A DNA stretch of 50,369 bases from Psammoneis japonica (lineage: Eukaryota): the NCBI GenBank assembly GCA_008632985.1, contig QPGO01000061.1, positions 372,001 through 422,369 of the forward strand. Reading direction: 5' to 3'. The notes under the pieces are model-generated. The model had not been told where the DNA came from. It searched no databases and worked only from the letters and a program-made list of their open reading frames with translations. Made by a program: the position numbers and the translations under genes. Positions 13,684 to 50,369 of this stretch are shown in pieces (the stretch's first letter is position 1; each line of letters starts with the position of its first letter).

Positions 13684-15540
13684 CTTGAAATCGTTCCGAG
13701 AGTCATTGTAACTTGCGCACTTGGCCATTGATCCAAGGGACCTGGACAAAGGAGGTGCACAATTTCTTGGTGGCCAAGTTGGAATTTCCTTTTGGAGTGG
13801 CACGTGCATGACATTTTCTGGGGACGACAGATTGTTGGGTGGGAAATGGAAACTGCCGCCATTGACCTGCAGCAACAACACCTCTGACAGATGGTGCATG
13901 ATGATGTGCAGCAGAAAAGTTGGAACCCAGACAGACCTTGGAGCCAGGTGGTACATTCCTGCAGCAGGAGAAGCTGGACCAGCAAGTGCACTTGTCAGCT
14001 CTGAAGATGACATTGCCTCCAGCAGTGCCCAGCAGATGATCAACCCTGGCACCACTCAAACAGGTTTTGCATGCATCTGCTTGTTTTGGCATTGTCGCTT
14101 GTCACAGTCTCCCTTTCCCCCAGATGGTGTTGCACAACTCTGTCAGTTGCCTGCCCTGTCTGAAAAAAAAGGGCTCCAGCAAGCATGTGCAAGAGTGATT
14201 TTGTGCCTGAAGAAACAATCTTTGGAACTCTGGAATTTGCACAGCTTGGGGCCATTTGCACAGAAAAAATGTGCGGCACACTTGAGCAAGTCTTGGCAGA
14301 TGCACTTGGTGCTGCAAATGTTGAACATGAAATGATGGAAGAGCAATGTCAACTCAATGCTTGTGGTGAATTCAGGCACTCCAGTGTAAACTGCTGTGCC
14401 ACTGTGGAGCTTGAAAGCATTTCTCTCATGGATGCTGTCATGGCCAAGGCAAGTTGGGTGATGTTCATGGGTGCAGCCATGTCAACTCTTGTCCTGCTTG
14501 CATGCAAGACCTTGTCAACCATGGTGTTGGCTGCATTGTCTCAGTCTCCAGCTCTTGCATGACAAAAGAACAAGATCGTGCCACCAATTGCACAATCAAA
14601 CAGGCCACCAATGATGGCCTTGCATCTGAAGAAACAGCTGCCAAGTGCAGTGACCCTCCTTGGGTGCAAACAGCAGGGGAAATTTTGGAGCTCAAGGTTG
14701 TTGTTGCTTTGAATCAAGGTCAGCTGTGTGGACTCCAAGTTGACTTGGTTTGTTCCTGACCTTGGCAATGGTGGATTAGACTTTGCAGAGAATTGTCCAT
14801 TTCATTGAAGTGCTCATTTGCTTCCTCCACATCAAACATCAAAGTCATGAGTTTGAAAAATGTGACTCTCCACAGGGGGGCAGACATGCTGAGCATGGGG
14901 TGCAGAAATGCAAGAAGCCATTCTGGGAAAGAGACTCCAACAGAGGCTCCAATCCACATGGAAATGCCCCCCACTCACAGCAAAACAAATCATGGTTCCT
15001 CCTGCAGAGCCACAAATGCACTGCGTTTTGGCACCTTTGAGTGGAAATGGGTCAGCTCTTGGGGTTGACAATTTCTTGGAACAAGCCTCCATTTTTCAAT
15101 GTGCCATCACTGAGTGGATTCCTGTTTGCAATCTTTCAGGTGGCAAGGCCACATTTGACAGACTCAGGTCAGCCCTTGTCCGTGTCTCTTGTCTTAGGAT
15201 GGGAGAGGCATTGTTGTCATTTTGTCAATCAGAGTGCCGACACCAAATGGCAATGATGATGCAAGATTGGCCTTTGCGCGCTCACATCACACTGCCATTG
15301 AATTGCAACCGGCCCCTTCACCAAGTCCAGTGCAGTGACAAGCACATTGAGGATGAGCAACAAGCCTGCCCCATGTGGCTCTTGCACCAACACCTTTTCC
15401 ACAGTTCACAGCTTGCAAGTGTTTTTTTCAAAAGACGGCTCCTGGAAAGCATGCTCATTTTTGGTGTGCTGTCATCAGCATTGCATTTGCTCCTTGTCAA
15501 ATTGTCATCAACCTTTGCAAAACAGCAGTGTGATTTCATG
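13684..15540 (-). repeat. Hypermutated unknown coding-like sequence, homologous to ~43990-44780
   Basis: gcacttggccattga..agggacctggaca (13717 vs 44019), tttgagtggaaatgggtcagctcttg (15036 vs 44334), ggctcttgcaccaacacctttt (15377 vs 44652). TpA and CpG nearly absent. Confidence 0.7.
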
Positions 15541-15565
15541 CCTTTGGCTTCCGGGGGGGGGGGGG

Positions 15566-15832
15566 GGGCTGTTCCAGCTCCAGGTGAGATGATTTTCATC
15601 ACGCGAGAGGCCGATTTTCTGCGCAGTTTAGCGCAAACAACTCCCTTCAATTTTGATCGTTTCAAAAATCGAAAGGCAAGTGTACACCCAAAAATGCATG
15701 TAAAGTGTACACTTGCCCTTCGATTTGGCAAAAAATGGATTTTGAGAAAGTCAATTGCGCCAAATGCGACAATTTTTAAAAAATGATGAGAATCGAACCC
15801 GTCGTGCGCATCACCTGGAGCTGGACCAGGCC
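15566..15832. mobile_element. 267-bp MITE inserted in a poly-G tract (4-bp TSD GGGG)
   Basis: TIRs gggctgttccagctccaggtga / tcacctggagctggaccaggcc; internal 22-bp hairpin aaatcgaaaggcaagtgtacac...gtgtacacttgcccttcgattt; retains CpG and TpA unlike its flanks. Confidence 0.75.
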
Positions 15833-16119
15833 GGGGGGGGGGGGGGGGTTGCATGCTCGGCCATGATGGCACTGACTCTCTTGTGTCCTGTCCTCTCTGC
15901 TGGCAATGCTGCAGAGATGACAAGCAGCACCCAGCACATCTGGCAAAATGATGTTGAAGCTGTCAATGATCAACAAGCTTGTGTCATGGCTAAAAAGATC
16001 TGTTTGATGAGTGGTCACATCACACGCATTCAGCAAGGTTGACACACCAGAGCCTTTGCCAGAACCATGGTCCCATTTGGCACAATTGTCACCAGCAGAG
16101 CCCCCTTGAGCACCAGGGC

Positions 16120-17258
16120 ATTCATTTCTAGGAAGCATCTTCCCCAGAGCTCTGTTTGAGCTGCGCTGCTTTACAAGCGTCTCATGAGTGCCATCCACAT
16201 CCAGCCAAGCCTCATGTCCAGCTTCCTGCACAAAGTCAAAACACTCATGCCGTCCACATGGTTGTGGTCCTGAAGAGCAGCCTTGGGCTTGTTCATGGCT
16301 GCAGAAATCAACTCCCAGAACAACTTGGGGAGTTCCATCAACTTGAAGCCCTCCATTTTCATCACTGATTCATGGCTGGCAATGAAGAAATGGACCACCG
16401 TTTCCTTGAGAAGAGCGCAATTCTTTTGGTCTGCACAGTGTAGTTTTTTGATTGCATTTTTGAGAGACACACCTGACTCTGCCACTTTGGCTTCTGCAGG
16501 GAGCTTCAAGCTCAAGCAGCACTCAAACTTGTCTGCAACGTCGAGCAGGTCCATGGCATTTTCTTCCATGCAAAAATTGTTTGGAAGCTCATCTTGACAA
16601 AGTGCAGAAACGCATGAAAAATGGATGGATTGACATTTCCGTTGCAATCTCCTTTGTCTCCTTTGGTGGCTCACTGGCCCCAGGGCTTGCTTGGCAAGAA
16701 TCACCTTGTGACAATGAAATGTCCTGCCACCCACAGAAAAGGTGACGAAATCGTTTGACTCAAATGCACACTTCATGTCCTTGCCAAGTGTGTTTGTTGG
16801 GCACCACAACCTGGGCTTGGGATCTTGAGGCACATTTAGAATCATCACATTGGTGATGACTGCAAGTGCTCCATTCATGAGGCATCCTCTCTTGACCGAT
16901 CAAGCATGTGTTTGCACAGTGCAAAATCACTGCATCCATGACATTTGTCTTCATCAAAAGTTCTGATTTCAGCTCTTCTTGTTGGTCCCACAAACAGCAA
17001 GTGCATCACCAGTGGCAGCTGACTTTCATGGTTGTCACCCAAACCAGAGGCAACATGTGCAATGCAAATGACAACACAATGCCGTGAAGAATTTGTCAAG
17101 CCTCTGTGGAACAGCTGCAGTCGCCACTGATGCCCATGGCAAGGAAGTGATCTGGAAAGCACATGCTCCCCAGCATTTTGAGGAAGACTGGCAAAGCCAG
17201 GGAAATTAAAGCAGATGGTTTGTTTTTCTGAAAGCACCGTTCCACCCACTGCAGCCAT
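16120..17258 (-). pseudogene. MATH-BTB(-BACK) SPOP-like pseudogene, copy 1
   Basis: FNFPGFASLPQ, CHGHQWRLQL, DFVTFSVGGRTFHCHKVILA, LLDVADKFEC, KNCALLKETVVHFF, MSVxTLxRKLD; multiple frameshifts; paralog at 45716-46865. Confidence 0.8.
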
Positions 17259-17749
17259 GATGGATGTTTTTCTGCTGAGAATGGCACTGCCCTTCAAGAT
17301 GGAACAATGAAACACAACAAAATCAGACTTCCTGTGCTGTTCTTAGAACTCATCAAAGGCGATTGAGGACTTGCGGAGGAAGTGGGAAAGAGTGGCAGCA
17401 AAGCCATGTCATTGCCACTGTGGCTGCTGCTGAAGATGAGGAAGGATCACAATGAGAGGATTTGCACTTTGTTGAGTCACCTTTTCTTTTCTTTTCCAAA
17501 ACTTGATCCACTGTGCAACTCAATTCCTTGCATTGAAAGGCTTTCACACAAAGGTGCCCCTTTTGACAAAGAGGGGAGAGCTGCAGCATGAAAGCATTGC
17601 TGCCATTTTGAGTCTCATCAAAATGTTTGTTCTGAGGCTGTTGTGCATGTGCGCAGTGTCTTGTCATGAGAAAGGTTGCGCAAATTGCTGAGGTTGCATG
17701 TGACATTGTGCACGCATCAGCAAGTGGGGCCACCACCGTGGACGACACC

Positions 17750-19570
17750 TGATTGTGATGACCTTGGCATGAAGGGGCGACTTTCAGTGCAGATGAAGTG
17801 GGGATGTGCAACCTGCTTGGGCAATTGTTCACAGATGGCCTGGGATGGGCTTTCCTGAAGCATTTCAGTCATGCCCAGAGAATGGATGCTGTGCTTTCTT
17901 CCTTGCCCTGCTGGGGGCTGAGAGGCACCAGTCAGGCTCCTGATGGTGCTGATGCTCTGAATCCACCAGCTGCAACAGTCACATGTGTGTTGATGTTGCC
18001 AGTGTGAAGTGAAGTGGACAAGGTTGCTTTACATTCAACCACCAGCATGTCCAGTGCTGTCAGAAGACAAACAACAAACTCCAGGAACCCTTGGAGAGTG
18101 CTGGCTGGTGGCCACTGAGACCAAGAAAAAGGTCACAAATTTTCTCTCAAGAGGGAGTGCCCAACCCCCAACTCAAAGTTGACAAGCAGCCAGTCAGCAA
18201 CAATGAAGCAAAGCTCTCCAGCTTTGAAGTGTGTCAGCAGCACTTGAAAATGGCAGTTGAGCACAGCCCCACTCACAGCAGCCAGGGATCTCCCTTGCAC
18301 TGCAGCTGCCCCACTCTTTGCAAGAATGACTCTGGGCAGGCCCACAATCTCTCTGAAGGCCTCAGGTTTCACAGAATCATGAGAAGATGCAAGCACCTTG
18401 CTTTGCCCTGGTCACCATCTAAAGGGCAAATGGCTGGCTCTGTTGCTCCAACAAAGAAAAGAAGAAAGAAGAAAATGAAACCCACCTTGCCGCTGCTTTG
18501 CTGCCGCCCACACCAACACCAACCACAACAGACCCACATTCCCCAGTGCCCACAAAGAGCAGCAGGGACAAGTTGACAGCCATTGAATTCATTGTTCAAG
18601 AACAATGCCTGTCAGATGCCACAGTTTAAAGTCAAAATGGCAACCAACCAGACATTTGTTGCACTGCAAACACAGTTGCTGTGCTTCAAAGAATGGCAAA
18701 GCCCAACCACACCACATGGGAAACACCAAAATGAACACTGCAAAAAACTGGGCCCATGTCTGTCTCCAAAAATAATGTGCTTGCAGAGAATGTGAGTGAA
18801 ATTCCTGGGATGAAACCATCCAGGAAGTCCAACACAGAACACAGCAAAGGAAAGGAAAATGATGATGGCCAAGGATGTGGACAACACCTGATTGCAATGA
18901 CCCCACATGAAGGGGCACAACATTCAGCACAGATGAAACGGGGACGTGCAACCTGCTCAAGCAATTGTTCACAGATGACCCGGGGTGGGCTTTCCTGAAT
19001 CCTGAAGCCTTTCAGTTGTGCCCAGAGAATGGATGCTGTGCTTTTTTCCTTGCCCTGCTGGGGGCTGAGAGGCCGCCACACTCCCGATGGCACTGATGCT
19101 CTGATGCCACCAGCTGCAAGAGTCACATGTGTGCTGATGTTGCCAGTGTGAAGTGAAGTGAAGTGAACAAGGCTGCCTCACATTCAACCACCAGCATGCC
19201 CAGTGCTGCCAGAAGACACACAACAAACTCCAGGACCTTGGAGAGCTGGCTGATGGCCACTGAGACCAAGAAAAGTTTGCAAGCTTCCTCTCCAGGGGGA
19301 GTGCCCAACCTCAAAGTTGGCAAGCAGCTGGTCAGCAGCAATGAATCAAAGCTCTCCATCTTTGAAGTGTGTCAGCAGCAATTGAAAATGGCAGTTGAGA
19401 TGAGCACAACCACAACAGCCAGGGATCCCTTTCGCCGCAGCAGCCAGCTGCCTCACTCTTTGCATCAGGAATGACTCTAGGCACAATCTCTCTGAAAGCC
19501 CCAGGTTCCACAAAAAGAGGCAAGTGCTTTGCATTTGCCCTGGTCACTGTCTAAAGGCCTGATGGCTGGT
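17750..19570 (+). repeat. Diverged duplication of a ~650-bp segment (17780-18435 vs 18920-19570)
   Basis: Shared gcaattgttcacagatg, gcccagagaatggatgctgtgct, gccagtgtgaagtgaagtg, tttgaagtgtgtcagcagca. Confidence 0.75.
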
Positions 19571-19759
19571 TTTGTCCAACAAAGAGTGTGGCACAAAAGC
19601 ATGTGCATGGGCTCTGAAAGCAGAGAATCAACTGTGTGACAATGACAGAGAGCAAGATGTGTCCCAGGTCAAAATGGACAATGTGGAAGAACCCAAGTCA
19701 CCTGCTGGGCCCAACAAAGCCGAGAGGGATGCCAAGCTAATTTCCAAACACAAGAAAAG

Positions 19760-21413
19760 AGGCACAGTCAGAAACAACAACTTGCACCACATCAAGCAAA
19801 GCCAGTCTTGCAGTTGAAAATGAGATGAAGTTGAGAAAGTTTTTTGCACTCTGTTTGAATTCCAGCAAAACAGCTGACACATGACCTGGAAGGTGAACAT
19901 CAGATTGCTTTGATGGTGTGCAGCACACAATCTGCAATCAGGCTCACTCCTCCTGCTCAACAATTGAGTCAACTCAGCAGGCCAGCCAGCTCAGTTTGCC
20001 AACACTTTTGTGGGAGGTTTGGTTTTTGTTCCATTCTCTGATCTAACCCAGATGGCAGCTCTGTGGCTGTGCACTTCAGCAAGCTCCAGCAGCTGATGAA
20101 CAACTTGCCTGTTCAACATCTGTCATGTGGCGGCAGTCTGGACACACACACACAGAAAAAATGGGCCAAGACTGGCTGCCTGTTGGGGGCTGCACTCAGA
20201 ACTCTCTGTCTCATCCCACCAAACAAATTCAGGCAAACAAGTTGGTTGCTCACAATGCATTGCAGCAATTTGATCCAAAGAGCACACACTTGATCACTTG
20301 TCCAGACTCAAAGATCTGGTGTGCTCTGGCTGCTTCATCTGAGTGCTGAGGTGGCTTCAACTTTTCAGTCCAGCAAGTGAACCATGGCTGACTTGGGGGG
20401 ACCACCACAACTGGAGCTCACTTCTCCCAGATTTTGTGCAGATGACAGGGCATTGGACCATTTGCCCAAAGAACATTCCCAGGGTGACAGCCCAAGCAAG
20501 TGCTTGGAGTGAGTGTGCACCATCCAAGCAGAAGTGTTTAGACAGAAGAAGGAGGCACCGTGACTCAGGTTCCCCGGTGTCAAAAGAAGGCCACGCCACA
20601 GTCAGAAGCAACAACTTGTGCCATCAAGCAAAGCCAGTCTTGCAGTTTAAAATGATGTGAAGTTGGGAAAGTTTTTTGCACTCTGTTTGAATTCCAGCAA
20701 AACAGCTGATGCATGACCCATCAGGTGCCAACATCAGATTGCTTTGGGTGTGCACAATCAGGAGGCTCACTCCTCCTGCTCAACAGTTGAGTCAACTCAG
20801 CAGGCTGGCCACTTGACGAGCCAGCTCAGTGTGCCAAGACTTTCGTGGGAGGTTTGGTTTTTGTTCTATTCTCTGATCCAACCCAGATGGCAGCCATGTG
20901 GCTGTGCACTTCAGCGAGCTCCAGCAGCCGATGAATGACTTGCCTGTTCAACATCTGTCATGTGGCAGTCTGGACACACACAGAAATGGGCCAAGACTGT
21001 CTGTCTGCCTGTCGGGGCTGCACTCAGAACTCTCTGACTTATCCCAACCAACAATTTCAGGTAAACAACTTGGTTGCTCACAATGCATTACAGCAATTTG
21101 ATCCAAAGAGCACACACACATGATCACTTGTCTAGACTCAAAGATCTGGTGTGCTCTGGCTACTTCATCTGAGTGCTGAGGTGGCTTCAACTTTTCAGTC
21201 CAGCAAGTGAACCATGGCTGACTTGGGGGGACCACCACAACTGGAGCTCACTTCTCTCAGATTTTGTGCAGATGACAGGCCATTGGACCATTTCGCCCAA
21301 AGAACATTCCCAGGGTGACAGCCCAAGCAAGTGCTTGGAGTGAGTGTGCACCATCCAAGCAGAAGTGTTCAGACAGAAGAAGGAGGCACCGTGACTCAGG
21401 TTCCCCGGTGTCA
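19760..21413 (+). repeat. Tandem duplication with ~830-bp period (19760-20582 / 20597-21413); a related fragment is at ~47390-47540
   Basis: cacagtcagaa.caacaacttg at 19763 and 20597; near-identical 20270-20582 vs 21100-21413, both ending gttccccggtgtcaa. Confidence 0.85.
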
Positions 21414-21418
21414 AGGAT

Positions 21419-21712
21419 AGGTTTCACATGGATCAACTGTTTCCTGGGGTGACATCCATTCATTGGGACACAGCCAGGTCTGTTTTATCAAGTGGTTGTG
21501 GATGCAACCAGCTCTGCCCTTGAAAAAAGAAGAAAGAGCATCCACACAAGATGATGTCATTCATCCATGATGTTGGAGTGCCCCAAGAGACAGTCTCCGA
21601 CGGTGTTCTGGAGTTAACTTACGGATGCACCAAGGAGACCAGCAAGAAATGCAGGATCAAACAACCTGGTGACTGTGCCGTGCAGTCCCTGGCAGAACTT
21701 GGCTTTCTGGCA
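21419..21712 (+). mobile_element. Ty1/copia integrase fragment
   Basis: RFHMDQLF, MSFIHDVGVPQETVSDG and VPCSPWQNLA resemble the copia rve core (FxxDxLF...DxG.P..LxSDG...P(Y)SPWQNxAE). Confidence 0.6.
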
Positions 21713-21893
21713 ACGAATGATTTCACATCTGTGCTTTTATGAGTTGATCCTGATATTATCAGCTACATCTTAATCTTCGTTGACAAGTAGAGTGTGCTCC
21801 CAATATTGCAGGGCACTCTAAGAGAGTCACAAGAGGGGGGCTCTACCACACACAATTTACATTAGAATTTAGACTAATTATGAATCATGATGC

Positions 21894-23500: not shown

Positions 23501-23509
23501 GCTGAGCGT

Positions 23510-30334: not shown

Positions 30335-30459
30335 TGGCTAATCTCTTACCAGTAGTCTATAGTGTAGTATAAACATTTCAATTGTTTTTTATTGCGCTGT
30401 TTTCATTCACCGTCACCACAATCTAAACAATGGTTGTGTATCATGCAATAGTATGCAAT

Positions 30460-36870: not shown

Positions 36871-37069
36871 TTCCCAGTCGGATTTGTGAGTAGATTGTTG
36901 AAGTGGGTGAGTGAACGTTGTCTCTGTTGTCCTTGTCGTCCCAATTAAGTTTTCTGCTGCTGTTGTCGGATGCTCACATGCTTTTCACCTGCTTTTGTGA
37001 AACAGCTCTCCCCATGTGTTTCTACAGTCTTGAACTGCCCAAACATGCTTTGTCCTGTCGTGTGTCTCA

Positions 37070-38040: not shown

Positions 38041-38118
38041 AATGCTGTTGTACAAAATGACCGCTTAACGGCACATTGGCCAAACGACCACTGGAGGAGA
38101 TTTGAAAGTTTGACAATC

Positions 38119-39450: not shown

Positions 39451-39603
39451 AAGATTTGGTTGATTCTCAGTTGTGTTGCATTTGAGAAAAAGGAATCATT
39501 GATGGCAACCACAAGATTTTCAGTGTTAAAGAGAGGTTTGAAAATTTTCCAACGGCGAAAATGACTGGGACACAAGGCATGGAGCCACCCACAATTGGCA
39601 ACA

Positions 39604-40827: not shown

Positions 40828-41670
40828 AAAGGCAGCGGAGGCTTTTGTCAGTGTGACAATGGAAAGAGGACAAGCAATGTAGTGGGCTTCAATGTCAACA
40901 GTTGTGAGGTTTGACAAAGCATCAAAGGGATCACTGTTCCATGATCTAACCTTTCGTTTGACAACAAGTGCAAGCAACAGAACCAGTGCATGCAATGGAA
41001 GGTTCTCTTAACCAATGTAACGCAACGATTGGCATTAAATTGTCATCAACCAAAACGTTGTGAACATTGCTTTCAAAAGGCAAAAAGTGACGGAATTCTG
41101 ACAGCCAAGGGAGGGGTCCCACAGGCAAAGGAGGGGTCCCATGGTGAAAAATGTGATGCTGTGACACATGATAAAAAATCACGTTCTACACAACTCACTC
41201 AATGTGAAACTGTTGCATTTGTGCCTGTGACAGTGTCAAAAATTGCCTGCAAGAAGGGTGGTCAGGATCGCCACATTTCGCGCTCTGATGCAGCTGCCAG
41301 CTGTTTTGCAAAAAAGCCAAAGGCTTTTGACATTCTCTGCCCATTTGTGATTGCAAAAATTGGCTGAGAACACTCTTCAATGTCTGTGGAGTGTGCTCAG
41401 GCAAAAAAAAACAATGTCCTCTAAGAATGAAAGATGAGGCATCATGGCCACTGATTGCCTCTGTTTCTGTTGGCGACAGCCAAGAACCTTGTGCTCATCA
41501 CATGACAATTTTGCTGCAGAGCTCACACGTGGAATTTTGCATCATGCAGGTGTTGCATGGAGCCCCGCCTGGGACTGGAACATGCTTTGATTGGCTTGAC
41601 TCTTGATGGCAAGATTGTCAAACAGGCAGCTGACAGTGGCTCCCCTCAATCTGATGATTCAGAGGCCAGC

Positions 41671-42060
41671 GACGCGTTCCAGCCCCAGGTGGGACTCCGT
41701 GTGACATTGGGCCCGTAGAATTCTACGTGCGAGCTCCGTAGTACGAGAATTTAATTAATGGATATATTTGTCTTCAACATCAAATAAACGGCCAAGTTTG
41801 TGGTACAATTATGCCTCTTACCACTCGACGTTTTTGCAAATGCACCTGCCCTACGCGATTCTTAAGACATTATAGAATCGCGCTGTAACAAAAAATGTCA
41901 AAAGTTGTTGGACGGATCGCTCAACAAGTGCACCGTAAAATGACACAAAATGTCAAAAAAATCACGTAGAAATCTACGTGCGCGACATACGACGTGATTC
42001 AAAAAACTGTCGATGTCACAGTTCAGCAGCACGAGGTCCCACCTAGACCTGGAACGCGTC
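41671..42060. mobile_element. 390-bp intact MITE of the same family, 4-bp TSD CAGC
   Basis: TIRs gacgcgttccagccccaggtgggac / gtcccacctagacctggaacgcgtc; CAGC at 41667-41670 and 42061-42064; subterminal palindromes at 41712-41729 and 41963-41980; TpA/CpG intact. Confidence 0.85.
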
Positions 42061-42519
42061 CAGCGCAGGATCTTCACACAAACTTCTTTGCCCCGTCAAT
42101 TTTGAAAAGGGGGCATGTTTGGCAAAGAAGCACTGGGCTCATTGAGTTCTTCAGAGAGACACTGTTGTGCAAAATGAAGCAGCAGCACTGCCCAGAGCAG
42201 CTCTGGCCATTTTTTCTGATGCGCTGGCTGTTGTCAACAACCTGCCATGCAATCTGACTGATGAAGAGGTTCCCGCCGCTGTGGTGTGTGACATTCTGGT
42301 GAAAAACTTGCCACTGTGGCTGGGTCAGGGACATGTGGCATTTTGTCATGTTTCTGGACAAACCTGTTTGTGCGGACTCCTTTTGCATGGATTGAATCTC
42401 TGCGAGACATCAATCGTCATTGCAGACAATTCACATGACAAATGCACACACTGAGCAAACAGACATTCTCAATGCTTTAAAATTCAACACATGCTCAACA
42501 AACATCAACATGTTTCAGT

Positions 42520-42966
42520 GACAGGATTTCATTGTTTGGCGATTCTGCTTTTGTCGTGGAGACAAAATCACAGAATTCTCCTTTTGTCATGGGAGCAAAA
42601 ATTTGTCGTTGACGACAAACGGAGACAAATGATGACAAATGGAGACAAACAGAGACAGAGACAAAACAGAAAACAGGTGGAGACAATGGAGACAAATCAA
42701 TCAAAACCAAGATGAAGCGGGCTCTTTGACTCACTCTTCGCTGTGCTTGGCAAGAGCGAGTGTTTGAGCATGATGGGTCTGCCTGCACAAACATCAACAG
42801 ACGCCATTGACATGCAGCGGTGGTTTTAATTTGCAGCTCAGCAGGTGCCATTGCATGTCTGTCACTGTCCCATCATCAATCGATCAACCAATGATGACAA
42901 AATTTTGTCTCTGCCATGTGTCTCGTGGCAAAATGCTTCTGTTTCGAAAACAGAGACAAATCCCTG
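42520..42966. mobile_element. Possible hAT-like MITE remnant with GACAAA subterminal repeats
   Basis: caggattt...tgttt at ~42522 vs aaacagagacaaatccctg at ~42947-42966; many (GA)GACAAA/TTTGTC motifs; no convincing TSD. Confidence 0.35.
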
Positions 42967-45119
42967 AATAAAGACTTGCTCACTGAACAAAGTGATTCAC
43001 ATGGAATGGGTGACATTGATGCCAACTTTTACAAACACACACGTGCACAATCATTTGTTTGTCCTCAACGGTCATTTTGCTGAAAAATTTTCACTCAAAC
43101 GGGCCATTGCAGACAAACGTGCAGGGCCATGGACAGTTTTGTTGGAAAGTGAGACAAATTGCCATGTGTCCCAGCACAACCATGGCAACATTGTGCTTGC
43201 ACTCAGGGACTCTCCACCTCTTGTTTGGACAACAAACTTTGGTCTGACTGAGGAGATCTTGTCAGATTTTTCCACAACAGAGAGCTGGTTGGGAGCCCAT
43301 CTCACTCTTGGCGACACTGCTCCACTCACTGGCCAACAGCAACAAAATCAACATGACTTGGACAAAGCAAGACAGCTCCAAGATGAGCCACCAGCAGCAT
43401 TGAAGTCTCAAGGGTTGGGTGCAGCTGGCCAACTTCTCTGTTGGAAATTGCCAATGCTGTGGGAGTCACATGCGTTGCCACTCACACTTCTGAAGGGGTG
43501 ATCTGAACAAGCTCTTCAAGACATTGAGCTGGTGTGGAGTTGTCTCTGTTGTTGTTTTGCTCTCCCAAGTGTTCCCATCAGTTCATCTGGCAGAAGCATG
43601 ATGAGAGCAACTGCAATGGTCACATGTGCCAACTTTTTAATGGCATCTGCTGTTTGCACTTCTGACACCAGCTGCTGCTGTGCACAAAGAGAATCCTCAA
43701 TGTGAGCTGTCACCTGTTGCTCTTTCACACCTCTTTTGATGACACAGCAGATGTGTTGACAATGCCACAGCACACTTTGGCTGCTCCAAAATGACAAGCT
43801 TGGATGGCTGGGCCTGAATGTTCAAGTTGGAAGGAGTCGGGGCCTTTTTGGGACACACTGGAACTTGGAATCATTCTGATGTGTGGGTCACTTTGTTTGA
43901 TGGTGCCAATGCCAGAGATGTGCCATGCATCAGGAACAACTCATTGCAGCCTGCACTTGGCCACACAATTTCCTTGACCTCTGTGGTTCAGGAAATGTTT
44001 CAACAGTCATCGCAGCCTGCACTTGGCCATTGACCCAAAGGGACCTGGACACAGGTGCAGAGTTTCTTGGTGACCAAGCTGGACTTTCCTGTGGGAGTGG
44101 CGCGTGCACATGACATCTTCTGGTGATGACAGATTTTGTTTTAGATGAAAACTGCTGCCATTGAAATGGAGTCCAGACAAACCTGAGAGCCAGGTGGCAC
44201 AGTTCCTCAGTTCTGGAGGAGCTGCTGCTGGACCAGCAAACGTGTGTCCACCGGCTTTGAAGGTGGCACTCCACCTCCAGCAGTGCCCAGCTGGTCAACC
44301 CTGGAGCTGCAAATGCATTTGGCTTTCAGCATCTTTGAGTGGAGATGGATCAGCTCTTGGGAGTGGCAGTTTCTTGAAGTGAGTCTCCATTTTTCAATGC
44401 ACCATCATCACTGGGTGGATGCCCACGGGGGGACCCTCCAGCAGGCGGCAAGGCTGTGTTTGACGGACTTGGCCAGTCCTTTTCTTTGTCACTCTTGTGA
44501 TGGGAAGAGTGCAGAGATTGGCGACAATGACAATGCAGGATCAGTCTTTGCGTGCTTGAATTCCACCATTGCATTGCAGCTGACCTCTTCACCAGGTCCG
44601 GCACAGCAATGAGTGCAGCACGAGAAGAAGCCACAAGCAAGCCCTCCAAGCGGCTCTTGCACCAACACCTTTTTTGCAATTCCAAGCTTGCAAGTGTGTT
44701 TTTTAAAAGATGTCTCTTTGAAAAGCATTTTTCCTCAGCAGCGCAGTGCATGTGCTCGCTTCTGTCGTCGCATCATCGTCAACACCCGGGCGGTGTGTGG
44801 CATTTTCACGCTTTTCTGTTTTTTTTTGTTTTGGGGAATGTGTGGCTCACATCATTTGACAAACCCTTTCAGTCGGCAAAACCACAGCATGCTGTGGCAC
44901 TTGGCACAAAATTGCACGTGCACTTTGCCGTGTCAAAAGCTGGAGGCCACAGTGAAAGCACGAAAGAAAGAGACAGTCTGGCTGTTGTTTCCCACCCTGT
45001 TTGATGCTGGGGCACACCTTGTGTGTGCAAACTGCTGGTTGAACAGACATGTTTGACAACACACAATGATCTTCTGCTGAAAGAATCTACTTTGTGAGTC
45101 ATTGAGAGCCTCACAAAGC

Positions 45120-45513
45120 ATCTCTGGTTGTTTCCCGGCAATTTGCGCTTCAACGCGGCGAGCGATTCACCGCACTTTGCGGTGGTGAAACAAGGGTTGT
45201 CCAAAATTTTCGATTTGACATCTCTGCAAGCAAAAGTTTCGAGTTGCATGACCTTTGCATGTGTCGAGCAACAGTTGTGTGACGTTAAACCGCTTGCATT
45301 GCTCATGTGGATGTTCACACTTTTAACCGTGCTTTCACCACGTGATTTTTTTTACAACTGCCGCAGGTGAAGTGCTCACGTAGAATTCCACGTGTTGCAT
45401 GTTCTGCATGCTGTGGTTTGGCCCATTCTGGAAAACTGAAAGGGGGTTTTTCGATCGGCCATGCCGCACCGGCATGTGTGATGGAAGGAATCGGACCTAA
45501 ACTGAATCTCTTC
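45120..45513. mobile_element. Partial end of a related TIR element
   Basis: cacgtagaattccacgtg at 45377-45394 and an end-like cggacctaaactgaatctcttc; homology with block 1 resumes immediately after (~45520). Confidence 0.4.
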
Positions 45514-45715
45514 CTCAGTTAAGACAGGACGAGTGGCACCCAGCACATCTAGCAAAACAATGTTGAAGCTGTTGATGATCAAGCTTGTGTCATGACTGGA
45601 AAGATCTGTTCAATGAAGAGCCTGCTGGAGATCCAGAGTCTTCACCAGAAACGTGATCCTTTCGCGGTCCTGTTCATCATTGTTGTCACCAGAGACCCCT
45701 TGAGAGCCAGGGCAT

Positions 45716-46865
45716 TCACACGAAGGAAGCATTTTCCCCAGAGCTCTGTTCGAGCCGCTTTACAAGCGTCTCACGAGTGCCATCCACATCCAGTCCAGCC
45801 TCATCCAGCTTTCTTTGCAACGTTGAAACACTCATGCCGTCCACATGGTTGTGGTCCTGAAGAGTGGCATTGGGCTTGTTCATGGCTGCAGAAATCAACT
45901 CCCGGAACAACTTGGGGGATTCCATCGACTCGAAGCTCTCCGTTTTCATCACTGCTTCATGGTTGGCAATGAAGAAATTGATCACCGTTTCCTTCAGAAG
46001 AGCGCAATTCTTTCGGTCTGCACAGTGTAGTTTTTTGATTGCATTTTCGAGAGTCACTTCTGACTCTGCCACCTTGGCTTCTGCGAGGAGCTTCAAGCTT
46101 AAGCATTCAAACTTGTCTGCAATGTCCAGCAGGTTGTGGCATTTTCTTCCACGCAAAAGTCCTTTGGAAGCTCGTCTCGACAAACAAAGTGCAGAAACGC
46201 GTGAAAAATGGACGGATCGACATTTTCCATTACAATCTCCTTTGTCTGCTCGGATGGCTCGCACTTTAGAACCTCAGACAGCCCCGGGGCTCGCTTGGCA
46301 AGAATCACCTTGTGACAATGAAACGTCCTGCCACCCACAGAAAAGGTGACGTCTGAGAAATCTTTTGACTCGAATGCACCCTTCATGTCCTTGCTGAATG
46401 TGTTTGTTGGACACCACAACCTGGGCTTGGGATCTTGAGGCACATTCAGAATCATCATGTCGACGCTGACTGCAAGCGTTCCATTCACGAGATGTCCTCT
46501 CGACGGATCAAGAACGTGTTTGCGCTGTGCAAAATCACTGCGTCCATCACATTCGTCTTCATCAAAAGTTCCGATTTCAGTTTTCGTGTTGGTCCCGCAT
46601 GCAGCGAGTGCATCACCTGTGGCAGCCTGTTTTCATCATTGTTGCCCAAACCGGAGGCAACACGTGCAATGCAAATGGCAACACAATGCCGTGAAAATTT
46701 CGCCAAGCCTCTGGGGAACAGCTGCAGTTGCCACTGACACCCATGGCAAGGAAGTGATCTGGAAAGAACATGCTCCCCAGCATTTTGAGGAAGACTGGCA
46801 AAGCCAGGGAAATTAAAGCAGATGGTTTGCTTTTCCGAAAGCACCGTTCCGCCAACTGCAGCCAT
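45716..46865 (-). pseudogene. MATH-BTB(-BACK) SPOP-like pseudogene, copy 2 (less CpG-decayed)
   Basis: FSDVTFSVGGRTFHCHKVILAKRAP, ENVDPSIFHAFLHFVC, ADKFECLSLKLLAEA, MSVSTLQRKLDEAGLDVDGTRETLVKRLE; frameshifts. Confidence 0.85.
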
Positions 46866-47540
46866 GATGAATGTTTTTTTTGCTAAGAACGGTGCTGCAA
46901 CTCAAGATGGAACAATGAAACACAACAAAATCAGACTTCCCATGTTGTTCTTAGAACTCATCAAAGGCGAATGAGGACTTGCGGAGGAAGAGGGGAGAGT
47001 GGTGGCGAAGCTGTGCCGTTGCCGCTGTGCGGCTGCTGCTGAAGGTGAGGAAGGATTGCGACGAGCGACAAGAGGATTCGTGCTTTGTTGAGTCGCCTTC
47101 TTTTCTTTTCCAAACTGATCCACTGCACAACTCAATTCCTTGTGTCGAAAGGCTTTCACACAAAGGTGTTACAAAGAGTGTTTTTGGCAATGATGGGAGG
47201 GCTGTGATCGAAGTGTGAAAGCGCCGCTGCTGTTGGTTTCATCATTGTCGATTTGAGGCTCCGGCTCCCATTGCGCGGTGTCGCGTGATCAGAAACAGGC
47301 AGGTTCGCATGCACCGTACGGTGGCGAACCCATGCCGATAGCTGGGTCGTGTGACATGAGGCCAGCAAAAAATTCAAATCATAAATCATGGCCACAGTCG
47401 TGCAGCTTCACAACAGATGAAGTTGGGAATGTTTTTGCACTTGACTGGCACATGGCTTGGCACACAACCATCAGATGGCTTCATGTGTGCACAGCCATGC
47501 TCACTCCCACTGAAAAGTCAAGTCAACTCAGCAGGCTGGC

Positions 47541-47816
47541 TGACAGAAATTGAAGGCAAATGGCAAGAATTCAAACAATGACTCCTTGCTGCTGTCTAAA
47601 CAGCAGATGAGTCTCCGCTCAGAGACCGTTGCAGGAGCCAAAAGACGTGTGAGTCGGTGTGGTTGGGCTGCTGTTGTCATTCTTGTGAGCCTTGTGGCTC
47701 GAAAGCAAACTGCATCGCGCGCGAACGCGCGGAACCAAAGCACACAAAACTGTGCGCGGCAAACTAAACAGCGCGCGACATTTCGCGTGCACCCAAATCC
47801 TGTTCAAATCCTGTCA
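47541..47816 (-). repeat. 3' LTR (276 bp) of the copia element
   Basis: Minus strand reads TGACAGG...TCTGTCA (TG..CA with a short inverted repeat), preceded by a PPT TGGGGAG (47817-47823). Host-repeat homology stops exactly at 47540. Confidence 0.7.
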
Positions 47817-50369
47817 CTCCCCAGTTTGCTTGAGGAGTCACAGAAACAGATTCGACTTTGGATGAAATGAAGTTCCAGAACATGAGGGGGTGGAGAAGGT
47901 CCCAGATTTGGGAGCAACCCCAATGCTTGCTGAGGATGTCAGCAGGGTTGCGGGAGCCTTCGATGAAGTGGAACTCAAGGTGACCAGAGGCAATTGCCTC
48001 ACGCACACGGTGGAACGATGGTGCGGTGTGTCGCTTGTGTAACTTGGAGTGCGGGATGGTGGCACTGTCTACAACCGACTTGTTGTCACCAAACATGTGA
48101 CTGACATTACGGATCGGGACGCCAAGGTGGCGCAGGGTGATGCGCAGGTCAATGATCTGCTCGACACAAGTCCTTGCAGCAACAAATTCAGACCCGCAGG
48201 TCGCAGTCTCCACGGTGGCTTGCTTCTTAGAGAATCAATCAGCCGGGAATTTGTTGAGGAAGTGGAGCATTCCCATGACAGAGCGTCCGGTGAGCATGCA
48301 ATGGCACAAGTTTGCATCGACGTAGTGGGTGGCAGTGACGAACTTGCCAAGGGGCGGTGGAGCGTCCTTCGGGATCATCTCTTCTGCTTCGCCGTGCATG
48401 GAATGCATCCATTCACAGGCCAGAGCAGGGAGATCCGAATGGTCGGGCTCTTCCGTGCGAACGTGGAGAGCACCGTGTCGCATCTTGGAGAGGTGCCCAC
48501 AGACGCGTTTGGCACGATCCAAGTGGCCTTGACGGGGCGCAGCTCGGAAGCTAGAGAGTGACATGACGGCCGTGGCAATGTCAATTCGACCAAGGGACAC
48601 TGCCCATTGGAGTGAACCAACAAGAGACTGGAGCTTGTGAATGCCATCGGGTCCCAGCAGTTCGGAAGTGTCCAGTTCGGGGTGGTCACCCTTCTCCAGA
48701 GGTGACAGGGCGTTGGTGGTGGGTTTCTCCCCAAACAGTTGGGCGCAGCTGTCGACCATGCGCTTGATGTACTTGCGCGGAGACAGGCACAAGGTTCCAT
48801 TGGGATCCCGGGAAAAGTCGCAACCCAGATGGAACTCAATGGGTCCCGCACCCTTGAGCTTGAACTTGCACTTTTCCGTGAGAGCATCGACGAAAGATTG
48901 AGGGTCCTTCATGGCAATGGCGAGGTCATCCACATAAACGGCAATGTGTTCACAGTGGTCGCCGTTCCTGCGCATCCAAATGTCGGGTTCGGCGCGGCAG
49001 GGGAAGAAGCCTTCAGCTCGCAGGCAGTCGGCGAAGCGCTGGTGCCAGCGGAGACCGGAGCTGCGCAGTCCATGCAGGGCCTTGTGGATGACAAGGATGT
49101 GTCCTTCGAGTTTGCCAAATTCGGGTCCGGCTGCAATGTAAAGCTTCTCCTTGGTGGTGGCTTCAAGGCAGGCATTGCCAATGTCGGTGGCCCATGTCTC
49201 CAACTCGTTGAGTTCGGCCAGGAAATCATCAGCCGAAGGCCACGGAGGGAGACTGCTCCGGAGTGGACACTGTCGACAGGTACGTCCGTGAGGTGCCCGT
49301 CGGCTACGAGTCGTGCCTTGTGGCGACCGTCGTGTTTCACGTCGTGCACTGGGTGCACTCGGATCTTCTTGTGTCCCACAGGAGGAGTGGAAGACTCGAA
49401 GGGCCCGCAGTCATGGAAGACTTCGTATTCGTCGAGTTGGTCCATCTCGAGATTAGTTGCGTCTCCCCATTTGCGGTTGCCATTGCGTTCGTCTAGTGAC
49501 ATGGCATGTTTGCAGTTCCGGGGAACTTCGCATCCGTACTTGCAGCGAGGTGCAGTGCGGAAGGAGCGAAGCTTGGCTTGGTTGGCCAAGCGAAATGGCT
49601 TCTTTTGGCGCCTTGTGATGGTGCAGAACCGCTTCCAGCCATCCGTGTCGAGGAGTCCGTTCTCTCGTGCATAGATGGCGCAGGTGACGGGGTCGTCCTT
49701 GGCGATGATGGCAAGAGGCTCAGACGTGATCTCCCCACTTTCCCATTCAAGCATGATGTTGTAGCTTGAGCCTTTCCAGGTTGGGTCGTGAGGCTTCAGA
49801 GGTCCTTCACGATGCATCGAAATTTCCAAATGGCAGTGTCTTCGTCTTCTTGCTCAATGTGATTCATGATGTCATTGCAGGCAAGGACTTCCTCGCATTC
49901 GTCGTTGTTGACAGAGCAGACGAACTTAGCGAGCTTGGGATTGCCGTTCACTTTCCATTCGTGGTCTTCGACGGCCTTGACGATGCGAGCTCTGTGGTGT
50001 TGTCCGTCCTCTTGTGGCTGCATGAGGAAGGTGCGTCCAATGATGTCTTGCGGATCAAAAACTGGCATCTTGGGTGTCCTGATCTCCCCATCAGGAGAAT
50101 CGACGGGGTTGTCATCATGGCGAGATTTGATGATGGGTTCAGGTGGCTCCCCATCAGGAGGATCAAGACGCAGGTTTCGAACGGCAGGATCGGTGGCAGC
50201 GGAGCGGACGTTGGACTGGTGGAGGATCTTCTGAGTCTCGTCAGAGAGAATCTTGAAGGTCATCTGGTGGCCGACGTGCTCAGCAATGCCAACGAAGCGT
50301 CCACGCAACTCACGGGATTCGGACGGCCAATCGGAGTCATCGAGGTGGAAGCATGCGGGTTCCCACCAG
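47541..50369 (-). mobile_element. Ty1/copia (CoDi-like) LTR retrotransposon, 3' part: integrase C-term, RT, RNase H; frameshifted
   Basis: DVKHDGRHKARLVADGHLT, DIGNA.LEA, IAVYVDDL, FGDNKSVV, HRVREAIA, NPADILSKHW; extends beyond the window end. Confidence 0.92.

Follow-up and report, generated by a model that had tools for sequence, protein, structure and literature searches.

Near-complete, TpA-specific loss of A:T pairs from mobile elements of Psammoneis japonica points to a targeted mutator

Why is the dinucleotide TpA almost absent from parts of a 50,369-nucleotide stretch of Psammoneis japonica DNA (the window)? Dinucleotide counts showed that 26.5 kb of the window have TpA observed/expected (o/e) ratios of 0.06-0.15 (13531-21039, 30950-41639 and 42071-50369), versus 0.63 in both host stretches. 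Counted per 1-kb window, TpA o/e is 0.03-0.11 over 14001-21000 and 0.03-0.22 over 31001-50000, with the exception of 41001-42000 (0.36). Against the TA counts expected at a host-like density, we found 28 versus 307 in 13531-21039 (Poisson P 1e-93), 93 versus 423 in 30950-41639 (P 3e-84), 29 versus 240 in 42071-47841 (P 5e-67) and 18 versus 76 in 47842-50369 (P 1e-15). The sliding-window check that had been proposed in the first-pass annotation, run here within the window, therefore bears out its near-loss of TpA at 13.7-21.5 kb, its strong depletion at 31-50.4 kb and its ordinary TpA in host genes; the three TpA sites that it named within 13981-15540 (14387, 14777 and 15195) are exactly those present.

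The host genes provide an internal control. They comprise giant plus-strand ORFs of the FG-GAP_2/SGL beta-propeller type (Pfam), with 24/48-nt tandem repeats, at 1..13220 (TA o/e 0.63), and a plus-strand paralogue at 25247..30334 (Pfam FG-GAP_2, E 1e-36), which has normal TA and is 87-89% identical to 1-1523 and 8202-11105. Host paralogues sharing 0.9-1.9 kb at 78-90% identity retain TpA, with a transition/transversion ratio of about 1.2, which lends no support to the earlier term "repeat-targeted" in the RIP sense. The M11 gene previously listed with the host genes has no Pfam M11 peptidase match in any region scanned.

The direction of the change can be read from a copia (Ty1/copia, RVT_2) pol copy on the minus strand at 47842..50369, recognised by tblastn with intact 1,860-aa homologues and by Pfam (RVT_2, E 1.5e-17). 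This TpA-erased copy carries two frameshifts and one stop, and the window end cuts off the rest. First, at the protein level, 40 intact copia homologues and a conservation threshold of at least 80% gave 466 conserved columns, 27 of them being Tyr; the window copy has Tyr at eight of these 27, Cys at eight and His at eight. Altered columns make up 19/27 of the Tyr columns versus 39/439 of the others (Fisher P 4e-13), and Cys or His occurs at only 4 of the 439 conserved non-Tyr columns. The choice between Cys and His shows only a trend with the preceding base (P 0.12). The peptides quoted earlier as examples (NACLEA, KALHGL, HCEHIAVYVDD, KCKFKLKG, RVCGHL, EPDHSD, TATCGSEF, LRHLG, SHMFGDN and HWGC) were all found in the translation, and the Cys or His of each is Tyr in the homologue consensus. 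Second, at the DNA level, the 13 sites with TA in at least 70% of 42 ungapped copia relatives read four TA, four TG, four CA and one CT in the window copy, versus retention of other conserved dinucleotides at 197 of 229 (P 2e-5). Third, 80 metagenomic copia relatives have a TpA o/e of 0.73±0.17 (minimum 0.31), and the window copy lies below all 80. Together, these three comparisons support the direction first proposed, TA to TG or CA on either strand, and with it the core idea of a TpA-specific mutator that turns A:T into G:C in the DNA of mobile elements. The family is not natively TpA-poor, as judged from the 80 relatives, and none of 120 copia homologues is Tyr-poor (median Tyr 4.0%). Three of the 42 ungapped relatives, which come from independent metagenome assemblies, are partly erased (TA o/e 0.31-0.35): 1-4 of 10 Tyr columns have turned into Cys/His, and 3-6 of the 13 sites have gone from TA to TG/CA; none of the other 39 has Cys or His at the same Tyr columns.

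A TIR-bounded (class II-like) element of 10.4 kb, on the plus strand at 31208..41581, was delimited by its TIR motif, which occurs four times in the window versus a chance expectation of 0.03, and by end alignment. It is TpA-erased and mildly CpG-decayed (30950-41639: TA o/e 0.139, CG o/e 0.64). Its long plus-strand ORFs are broken by single stops and contain 0.3-0.6% Tyr, 3.4-6.7% Cys and 2.9-5.5% His. One of them, a 525-aa ORF (37873..39447, plus strand), is a member of an uncharacterised family; among 1.84 billion representatives, it matched three distant relatives (E 5e-13 to 1e-7), which gave no Pfam match; Tyr amounts to 3.5-5.9% in these relatives and 0.6% in the window ORF, where 12 of 12 Tyr-majority columns are altered, five of them to Cys or His. 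A 380-bp MITE with the same TIRs (41676..42055; TIR matches at 41676 on the plus strand and 42055 on the minus strand) has normal TpA and CpG inside the erased zone (island 41640-42070: TA o/e 0.72, CG o/e 1.30). In agreement with the comparison of ends made earlier, TA or CG in the MITE ends appears as CA or TG in the ends of the 10.4-kb element. TA-free DNA also occurs beyond the ends of this element, at 30950-31207 and 41582-41675. The left stretch, part of a TA-free run (30949-31401) that spans the TIR start at 31208, probably belongs to an older erased element that received the 10.4-kb element as an insertion.

The first erased block (13531..21039; TA o/e 0.058), in which CpG decay is also strong (CG o/e 0.19), is copy A of a repeated element carrying a BTB gene; its homology to 43992-47540 (copy B) starts at 13687, and the matches are colinear. 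On its right lies a transition zone (21040..21614) with seven TA (o/e 0.18; CG o/e 0.15), and dense TA is back from 21615. Copy B belongs to an erased block at 42056..47841 (42071-47841: TA o/e 0.076, CG o/e 0.52). On the minus strand, copy A contains a BTB/BACK-type pseudogene (16174..17342; weak Pfam BACK_BPM_SPOP match, E 6e-4) and copy B a BTB/BACK/SAP gene (45719..46901; Pfam BTB E 5e-13, SAP E 2e-7, BACK_BPM_SPOP E 1e-5), the two being 81-83% identical. The codons CAT (17130-17132, copy A) and TGT (46737-46739, copy B), put forward earlier as two outcomes of one ancestral Tyr, are indeed present but ambiguous when taken alone, because an ancestral CGT would yield the same pair through CpG deamination, and CpG decay is active here: 46 CpG kept by copy B are lost from copy A. 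As a whole, the copy pair is still informative, with 19 TG/CA-discordant sites. For block 1 and the 10.4-kb element, we inferred the ancestral sequence, with support from the three distantly related proteins, from the ends of the MITE and from the amino-acid composition.

Strong lowering is limited to TpA and CpG when depleted and host DNA are compared over the dinucleotide table. AA/TT, GA/TC, AC/GT and CC/GG differ by at most 10%, and smaller shifts (depleted/host) affect AT (0.80, an expected side effect of TAT loss), GC (1.14) and AG/CT (1.19). The TG and CA ratios rise to 1.5-1.8 in the first three depleted blocks, and reach 1.21 (TG) and 1.52 (CA) in the copia block. Over the four blocks, the missing TA plus missing CG roughly equal the TG+CA excess (613/542, 523/444, 352/337 and 74/47). 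A separate, slower CpG decay, absent from the first-pass annotation, also feeds TG/CA; it is uneven over the blocks (CG o/e 0.19, 0.64, 0.52 and 0.85) and uncoupled from the TpA loss.

The TpA loss itself varies with the base that follows the A on its 3' side, decreasing in the order TAT > TAC > TAG > TAA, a feature that is new here. This ranking relies on two baselines from other sequences, against which the surviving TpA are context-biased (chi-square 170, P 6e-32): TTAA is enriched 4.2-fold and CTAA/TTAG 2.5-fold, ATAC/GTAT stands at 0.11-fold and ATAT at 0/168. The TAY/TAR ratio drops from 1.38 to 0.29-0.89 in the depleted blocks, and TGY/TGR climbs from 0.82-0.88 to 1.10-1.21 in three of the four; the product-by-context analysis is noisy. 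The TTAA enrichment was not found in the three partly erased metagenomic relatives (5 sites).

These data argue strongly for a DNA-level, TpA-specific A:T to G:C hypermutation aimed at individual mobile elements and ending within a few hundred bases of host genes. Three element types are affected, namely the copia element, the 10.4-kb TIR-bounded element and the repeated BTB-gene element. The symmetric outcomes, and the presence of a TIR-bounded element among the targets, indicate a process acting on DNA without a reverse-transcription step. Duplicated host DNA and the 380-bp MITE are spared; hence the trigger is not RIP-like homology, and we rejected simple sequence duplication as the basis of target choice. 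We propose that every TpA would be mutated once, on either strand, to TpG or CpA, a product that would no longer be a substrate. Such changes cannot make stop codons, so that reading frames would remain open or even become longer; the element would be disabled by the loss of Tyr codons (TAY to Cys or His), of ATA, CTA, GTA and TTA codons and of TA-containing signals. The slower, independent decay of CpG to TpG/CpA would then follow on the same DNA, as cytosine methylation would predict. The first-pass annotation knew of no described genome-defence system with such a signature; this signature is the one obtained by direct measurement in mutation-accumulation lines of the alga Bigelowiella natans, the sole account to date being a preprint of 2026 (Mettrop et al., bioRxiv 10.64898/2026.01.13.699255). 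We read the window as a genuine case, perhaps from a second lineage, of a genome-defence-like mutator that has only just been described.

As for the chemistry, we tentatively favour, as the likeliest candidate, a deaminase of the ADAT2/TadA type that would be brought to silenced foreign DNA and would convert the A of 5'-TA-3' into inosine; the window itself contains no deaminase gene. The main alternative for the same phenomenon, though rather unlikely, is that a TET/JBP-type dioxygenase turns the T of TpA in silenced elements into 5-hydroxymethyluracil (5hmU) or a derivative, which would mispair with G or undergo error-prone repair, giving T to C and, on the duplex, TA to CA/TG. Deamination of A in 5'-TAY-3' and modification of T in 5'-RTA-3' hit the same base pair and are inseparable by sequence, and the cited passages of PMC11572971 describe a TET/JBP enzyme of dinoflagellates making the 5hmU that marks and silences transposons, as well as older work placing thymine replacement preferentially in TA and TC. 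However, TpC/GpA is undepleted in the window (depleted/host ratio 0.98), at odds with a TA-plus-TC specificity; those passages do not link 5hmU to T to C hypermutation, and the preprint authors prefer adenine deamination and report an ADAT2 candidate (bioRxiv 10.64898/2026.01.13.699255).

It is very improbable that the true DNA retains TpA and that dense modification at TpA and CpG of silenced DNA was miscalled as TG/CA in long-read base-calling or polishing. Both palindromic YpR steps are indeed replaced by TG/CA, and modified thymine at TA on transposons is known from another protist group (PMC11572971, cited passages); but almost 100% miscalling would be required (28 TA left versus about 307), the frames are long and open with no indel noise, and the TpA and CpG losses do not go together among blocks. 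Moreover, the partly erased relatives from three independent metagenome assemblies show the same Tyr to Cys/His pattern, and Illumina reads of the B. natans lines gave identical changes as de novo calls (bioRxiv 10.64898/2026.01.13.699255). We give hardly any credence to RNA editing fixed by reverse transcription, in which ADAR- or TAD-type A-to-I changes at UpA of retroelement RNA would enter new insertions by way of cDNA. Editing deaminases prefer U at the position preceding the edited A (cited in bioRxiv 10.64898/2026.01.13.699255), and a copia retroelement is among the targets, but from editing of the sense strand one would expect no change other than A to G, and so Cys alone in place of Tyr, whereas we observed Cys:His 8:8 and TG:CA 4:4; furthermore, the TIR-bounded element is also erased, and TA-free DNA reaches past its ends. 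Just as implausible is a native composition, through adaptive TpA/UpA avoidance or a TpA-poor donor: TpA is mildly under-represented everywhere (host 0.63, copia relatives 0.73), yet 16 of 27 conserved Tyr became Cys/His in an enzyme that retains about 4% Tyr in all of its 120 homologues, none of the 80 copia relatives is as TpA-poor as the window copy, and TpA is normal in the intact MITE, which belongs to the same TIR family. Error-prone repair at WA motifs (Pol-eta type, a candidate of the first-pass annotation) and GC-biased gene conversion among repeats would each raise G+C at A:T pairs, but their probability is negligible, because ApA/TpT is undepleted (o/e 1.05-1.33, depleted/host ratio 1.08), biased conversion does not predict confinement to TpA and host repeats are unaffected.

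Several known systems resemble the proposed TpA-specific hypermutation in part. Like RIP in Neurospora and other fungi, it would defend the genome by mutation, filling mobile DNA with transitions at a single dinucleotide; RIP, according to the cited part of PMC7296669, makes C to T changes mainly at CpA, creating TpA and lowering G+C, whereas in the window TpA is destroyed and G+C is not lowered. Duplication triggers RIP, whereas duplicated host DNA is spared here. Deamination decay of methylated CpG in transposons accounts for the CpG to TpG/CpA component of the window, but cannot remove TpA, the loss of which is uncoupled from that of CpG. The 5hmU that TET/JBP makes in dinoflagellates, a modified thymine, is enriched on repeats and, according to older work, at TA dinucleotides, but the cited passages present it as an epigenetic mark, report no mutator role and associate it also with TC, which is untouched here (PMC11572971). 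APOBEC3 (C to U) and ADAR (A to I) share with the process proposed here a deaminase-based hypermutation of parasitic nucleic acids, but act on single-stranded cDNA or double-stranded RNA with strand-asymmetric footprints, whereas the window shows both strands equally affected, DNA transposon included; a liking of ADARs for U ahead of the edited A is noted in the B. natans preprint (bioRxiv 10.64898/2026.01.13.699255). The TadA/ADAT2 tRNA adenosine deaminases, from which TadA-derived adenine base editors stem, have A34 after U33 as natural target. The sequence in TadA's own substrate is U-A-C, and YAC was the motif favoured by early base editors, which would resemble the TAY preference of the window. 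To our knowledge, apart from the examples given in the B. natans preprint, no member of this family is known to act on double-stranded DNA of chromosomes.

The closest system is that of B. natans, where 231 mutations arose de novo in the NCLDV and virophage DNA integrated there, all but one of them A to G or T to C and every one of these at TpA, and where 124 clusters genome-wide are TpA-poor and CpA+TpG-rich, with reverse-transcriptase and DDE domains enriched among TpA-poor coding sequences (bioRxiv 10.64898/2026.01.13.699255). Both cases show A:T to G:C transitions exclusively at TpA, on both strands and in foreign or mobile DNA only, and a long-term footprint of lowered TpA with raised CpA+TpG; 19 of 50 1-kb windows of the present stretch pass both thresholds of the preprint, and three runs of at least three consecutive ones pass its cluster thresholds. 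They differ in that the targets measured in B. natans are viral insertions, with only partial depletion of the NCLDV region (Rho TpA 0.45) and none of the virophage region, whereas erasure in the window is near complete and concerns the copia, TIR and repeated BTB-gene elements. The preprint text makes no mention of CpG, trinucleotide or context (bioRxiv 10.64898/2026.01.13.699255); the window adds to it the CpG decay, the graded loss (TAT > TAC > TAG > TAA) and the escape of both the MITE and the host paralogues.

The TpA dinucleotide is almost erased from the mobile DNA of the window. The TpA observed/expected (o/e) ratio, calculated in 1-kb bins, was 0.4-1.3 in the host parts, 0.03-0.11 at 14001-21000 and 0.03-0.22 at 31001-50000, with the exception of the bin 41001-42000 (0.36), and the three TpA that the first-pass annotation had spotted by eye in 13981-15540 are exactly those found there. 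Limits set where TpA density shifts along the window delineate four erased blocks: 13531-21039 (28 TA versus 307 expected at host-like density; o/e 0.058; Poisson P 1e-93), 30950-41639 (93 versus 423; 0.139; P 3e-84), 42071-47841 (29 versus 240; 0.076; P 5e-67) and 47842-50369 (18 versus 76; 0.149; P 1e-15). The host stretches have a TA o/e of 0.63, and the island 41640-42070 has 0.72. Host genes and their paralogues are normal, and the erasure stops at ~13531, 21040-21614 and 30950; on the left, the host genes end at 13220, ~300 bp before the first erased base. With the strands pooled, only TA (ratio to host DNA, 0.18) and CG (0.55) were strongly lowered, while TG/CA rose to 1.29; GC (1.14) and AG/CT (1.19) showed moderate gains, GA/TC (0.98), AC/GT (0.97) and CC/GG (0.91) were nearly unchanged, and the fall of AT to 0.80 is expected from the loss of TAT. 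AA/TT also stayed close to host DNA (1.08), which disqualifies the Pol-eta-like error-prone repair at WA listed among the first candidates, since ApA should then have been hit too. Both TG and CA are elevated in all erased blocks, unequally so in the block 47842-50369, and the G+C content is 0.49-0.56 in the erased blocks and 0.48-0.51 in host DNA.

The erased DNA comprises both class I and class II elements. The block 47842-50369 (minus strand) matches Pfam RVT_2 (E 1.5e-17) and belongs to a copia retroelement, the pol copy of which has three reading-frame pieces, two frameshifts and one stop. A 10.4-kb element is bounded by inverted repeats whose motif, GTTCCAG..GG..GGRC, is located at 31208 (+) and 41581 (-), and the same motif, with four occurrences in the window versus 0.03 expected, delimits a 380-bp MITE at 41676 (+) and 42055 (-). 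An element carrying a BTB/BACK/SAP gene occurs in two colinear copies, at 13687-20809 (copy A) and 43992-47540 (copy B). The TA-free zone opens with 185 bases (13531-13716) that hold 15 CpG and precede the start of repeat homology at 13687, so that TpA loss begins ~150 bp outside the recognisable element; CpG loss near this left edge begins only at ~13860.

The 10.4-kb element has plus-strand frames of up to 623 aa, poor in Tyr and rich in Cys/His. These long frames are not evidence of function, because a change of TA to TG or CA makes no stop in any frame and removes TAA and TAG (2.7 and 1.6 per kb in erased DNA versus 7.0 and 10.0 in host DNA, respectively). Among 1.84 billion representative proteins, only three distant relatives of its ORF 37873-39447 (+) were detected, and Pfam recognises no domain in this family. 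The Tyr content is 3.5-5.9% in these relatives and 0.6% in the window ORF, where all 12 columns occupied by Tyr in at least two of the three relatives are changed, five of them to Cys/His. The family displays conserved motifs, including SIHD and GMD, and the AlphaFold model of the window ORF has a mean pLDDT of 33.8, i.e., the fold prediction failed. A word-index search for homologues of the 623-aa ORF (34205-36073) found none, and an Atlas search with this ORF and one host protein returned sub-threshold leads only. As to the identity of the 10.4-kb element, IMG/VR offered nothing credible (on the strand that matched, the sole locus, L001, lacks any ORF reaching 100 aa), a metagenome scan with the alignment A1 gave no match, and most erased ORFs had no match in Pfam.

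The direction of change can be read from the following lines of evidence. First, all 120 listed homologues of the copia pol copy have a normal Tyr content (medians: Tyr 4.0%, Cys 1.0%, His 3.6%). When the window copy was aligned to 40 homologues with a length of 1,800 aa or more (the first 40 so long among the 120 listed), 466 columns were at least 80% conserved and had a window residue. At the 27 Tyr columns the window has Tyr (8), Cys (8), His (8), Phe (1), Trp (1) or Leu (1), whereas 39 of the 439 other conserved columns differ, just four of them to Cys/His (Fisher tests of Tyr versus other columns, P 4e-13 for the changed residues and 3e-19). The Leu to Pro and Val to Ala changes reported in the first-pass annotation are present as well (one and two cases, respectively), together with one Ile to Met. 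Second, among the best 80 of 427 confirmed metagenomic DNA matches, the TA o/e is 0.73±0.17 and never drops below 0.31, and that of the window copia copy, 0.15, lies below every one. In 42 of these relatives that are ungapped over a 329-codon RT/RNase H stretch (the other 38 being excluded for gaps or partial coverage), TA is shared by 70% or more of the relatives at 13 sites; the window shows TA at four of them, TG at four, CA at four and CT at one, while other conserved dinucleotides are retained at 197 of 229 positions (P 2e-5). Third, the intact MITE arm (41714-41743) and the corresponding arm of the 10.4-kb element (41512-41541) differ by TA to CA, as had been noted, and by CG to TG. Together, the replacement of Tyr by Cys or His at 16 of 27 columns and the fate of the TA sites (four TG, four CA, one other) support the main inference of the first-pass annotation, namely a TpA-specific A:T to G:C change in mobile DNA. 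The comparison of the two BTB copies, also put forward to fix this direction, holds as a codon difference (CAT and TGT, in the minus-strand peptides ..LPCHGHQW.. and ..LPCHGCQW..) and not as proof of a TAT ancestor: it is ambiguous because CpG decay also yields TG/CA, a CGT codon giving CAT or TGT as well. The outcomes are strand-balanced (Cys:His 8:8; TG:CA 4:4), and the presence of both TpG and CpA indicates that either strand is hit. An RNA editing event fixed by reverse transcription would require strand-asymmetric A to G changes in retro-copied DNA, and was rejected in view of these symmetric outcomes and of the erasure of the inverted-repeat element.

CpG is also depleted in the erased DNA, a component absent from the first-pass annotation. 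Its o/e is uneven, 0.19, 0.64, 0.52 and 0.85 in the four blocks in order, and 1.30 in the island 41640-42070. The sum of missing TA and missing CG approximates the excess of TG plus CA in each block (613 versus 542, 523 versus 444, 352 versus 337 and 74 versus 47), and this balance, along with the unevenness of CpG loss, argues that two uncoupled processes converge on TG/CA. The three changed conserved Arg of the copia copy became Gln, Cys and His, i.e., a CpG-type change. Decay of CpG by cytosine methylation would account for the CpG component of the pattern, and cannot explain the loss of TpA. Of the CpG that distinguish the BTB copies, 46 were lost in copy A and kept in copy B and only three the reverse, whereas TpA is missing from both; in every block TpA has fallen close to its floor, but the extent of CpG loss varies greatly from one block to another. 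These features fit a fast TpA process followed by a slow CpG decay. Four metagenomic copia relatives (L005, L008, L024 and L029) have a CpG o/e of 0.20-0.24, TG/CA at ~1.4-1.56 and a TpA o/e of 0.46-0.52; with their strong CpG decay and just mildly low TpA, they indicate that the two signatures are separable in nature. A literature search on cytosine methylation in Bigelowiella natans returned nothing.

The few TpA that survive are not randomly placed. The 168 survivors of the erased blocks were set against two baselines, the 704 TpA of host DNA stripped of tandem repeats and the 18,181 TpA of the 80 relatives, and their contexts depart strongly from those of the relatives (chi-square 170, P 6e-32). 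The survivors-to-relatives ratio is 4.2 for TTAA, 2.5 for CTAA/TTAG, 1.9 for GTAA/TTAC, 1.2 for CTAG, 0.94 for CTAC/GTAG, 0.88 for GTAC, 0.64 for ATAA/TTAT, 0.31 for ATAG/CTAT and 0.11 for ATAC/GTAT, with ATAT at 0 of 168. This order of the ten contexts is that of a sum of two single-strand rates in which the base 3′ of A ranks T > C > G > A. Likewise, the frequency per kb falls in erased DNA from 11.6-14.6 to 0.1-0.7 for TAT, from 11.4-15.1 to 0.8-2.8 for TAC, from 8.3-11.3 to 1.1-2.4 for TAG and from 8.3-10.2 to 1.4-3.9 for TAA, and the TGY/TGR ratio moves from 0.82-0.88 to 1.10-1.21 in three erased blocks, the copia block reaching 0.91. From survivors alone, a rule at position +1 is inseparable from a rule at position -2 on the opposite strand; the excess of products by context, which relies on outside baselines, leans to a pyrimidine at +1 and is too noisy to rank -2. 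When sorted by the preceding base, the changed Tyr codons gave seven Cys and three His after a pyrimidine, and one Cys and five His after a purine (P 0.12, a trend only).

The two BTB copies also bear on the timing of erasure. In the comparison of 15913-17556 with 45522-47168, they disagree (TG versus CA) at 19 sites, which represent 28-35% of the TpA lost from each copy (~55-68, given 60-74 expected and 6-8 left). Independent hits with an unbiased choice of strand would produce 50% disagreement, a benchmark that context bias lowers, so that much of the erasure must have occurred separately in each copy; this fits two copies erased largely independently. A loss of TpA prior to the BTB duplication was dropped: most concordant TG/CA sites are native, and the 19 discordant sites stand against it. 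At 15 of these sites CA stands in copy A and TG in copy B, and at four the reverse (binomial P 0.02), an asymmetry that may reflect a locus-specific strand bias.

As regards what is spared, TpA is retained in three pairs of host paralogues (0.9-1.9 kb aligned, 78-90% identity) with a transition/transversion ratio of ~1.2, one pair having 45 TA in common and 18 differing; copies A and B of the BTB element differ by 136 transitions and 38 transversions. Since duplicated host DNA keeps its TpA, duplication as such is not the trigger, and the term 'repeat-targeted' of the first-pass annotation, if taken in the sense of RIP, is not supported. The MITE (41676-42055) has normal TpA and CpG, yet it is flanked on both sides by TA-free erased DNA: either it arrived after the erasure episode, or short elements escape. 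The host paralogues (1-13220 and 25247-30334, plus strand), three of them in tandem, have uninterrupted open frames of up to 2,208 aa, in which FG-GAP_2 and SGL-type beta-propellers occur together with Pro/Thr-rich 24/48-nt tandem repeats. Frames this long would suit intron-poor protists better than B. natans, which is rich in introns. Their C-terminal part is 63-66% identical to metagenome proteins labelled 'streptogramin lyase' by JGI, matches which suggest, at the level of sequence likeness, a bacterial-type family. The best named eukaryotic relative of one host gene is in the diatom Nitzschia inconspicua (59%), the best matches overall being at 63-66%. A single in-frame stop (12729-12731) separates the ORF 8514-12731 from the ORF 12732-13220, which continues the FG-GAP_2 repeat; the interruption could reflect a short intron or a pseudogene, or the gene may truly end there, with a remnant downstream. 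The M11 peptidase gene previously assigned to the window found no counterpart in Pfam: no M11 match was obtained with frames of 45 aa or more in 21615-25246 and 6628-8513 (E up to 0.1), with the frames scanned at a 90-aa minimum in 13.3-25.4 kb and to the right of 30.2 kb, or with the three large host ORFs.

Partly erased relatives exist elsewhere. Three of the 42 ungapped copia relatives (L049, L065 and L072) have a TA o/e of 0.31-0.35; they share ~62% DNA identity with one another and 62-67% with the window copy. At ten Tyr columns they have three, four and one Cys/His, respectively, and the other 39 relatives have none, while at the 13 TA sites they have five, six and three TG/CA. Among their surviving TpA, ATAT is the most depleted context (0.31x) and TTAA is not enriched (five sites). 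Their low mutual identity implies separate lineages, or separate hosts with the same process, and their occurrence in other assemblies speaks against an artefact of the present assembly alone.

Mutational genome defences, such as RIP, APOBEC and methyl-CpG decay, run from C to T. Fungal RIP converts C to T at CpA, thereby making TpA and lowering G+C, whereas in the window TpA is destroyed and G+C is not lowered; this, and the host paralogues that keep TA where RIP is triggered by duplication, led us to reject it. A rival chemistry is that of the dinoflagellate TET/JBP enzyme, which makes 5hmU that marks and silences transposons, thymine being replaced preferentially at TA and TC (PMC11572971); in the window, TC is untouched. 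A search of the full-text literature on TpA depletion or hypermutation, RIP-like processes in diatoms and defence by adenine deamination yielded one relevant work, a preprint on B. natans (Mettrop et al., bioRxiv 10.64898/2026.01.13.699255). Mutation accumulation in 15 lines of this alga gave 302 new mutations, 231 of which fell in an integrated NCLDV region and a virophage region; all but one of the 231 were A to G or T to C, each of these on TpA, and the hypermutation was confined to some lines. In the B. natans genome, 324 CDS are TpA-poor, reverse transcriptase and DDE domains being over-represented among them, and bins that are TpA-poor and rich in CpA plus TpG form 124 clusters; the mechanism proposed by the authors is deamination of adenine in DNA, with an ADAT2 homologue as the enzyme they name. 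From the figures of this preprint (211 mutations, 6,169 TpA and 3,132 line-generations), we calculated a rate of ~1.1e-5 per TpA per generation, i.e., a half-life of ~6e4 generations, values derived from B. natans that would apply to the window only by inference.

The first report of an A:T to G:C defence acting at one dinucleotide thus dates from 2026 and consists of one preprint on one alga. The window presents its end state on class I and class II elements: TpA stripped, Tyr turned into Cys/His and frames open. It adds a separate CpG component, a grading by the 3′ base, spared host duplicates and a spared MITE, and partly erased environmental relatives; the preprint text makes no mention of CpG, trinucleotides or context. 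The combination of a TpA o/e below ~0.2, a TG/CA excess and Tyr-poor, Cys/His-rich open frames offers a diagnostic with which to search genomes and metagenomes. We tentatively raise, as a reading we regard as somewhat doubtful, that the window represents a second lineage, not a chlorarachniophyte but a diatom-like protist as guessed from gene structure and one named homologue, and that TpA-directed DNA editing is widespread in protists, operating element by element under a TAY > TAR rule. If so, retrotransposons, DNA transposons and viral insertions would all be targets, the TAY > TAR rule would point to a TadA/ADAT2-like deaminase, and the partly erased environmental copia copies would reflect the same defence; with a host other than B. 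natans, the system would be older and more widespread than reported. We consider B. natans itself somewhat unlikely as the host; were it the host, the locus would be one more case of the phenomenon already published. The process itself is not categorically new, as the B. natans preprint already describes it. Both thresholds of that preprint are passed by 19 of the 50 1-kb bins of the window, with runs of at least four bins at 14001-22000, 37001-41000 and 42001-46000, and the change is like the B. natans type: A:T to G:C at TpA, on either strand, restricted to DNA that is foreign or mobile, and locally bounded.
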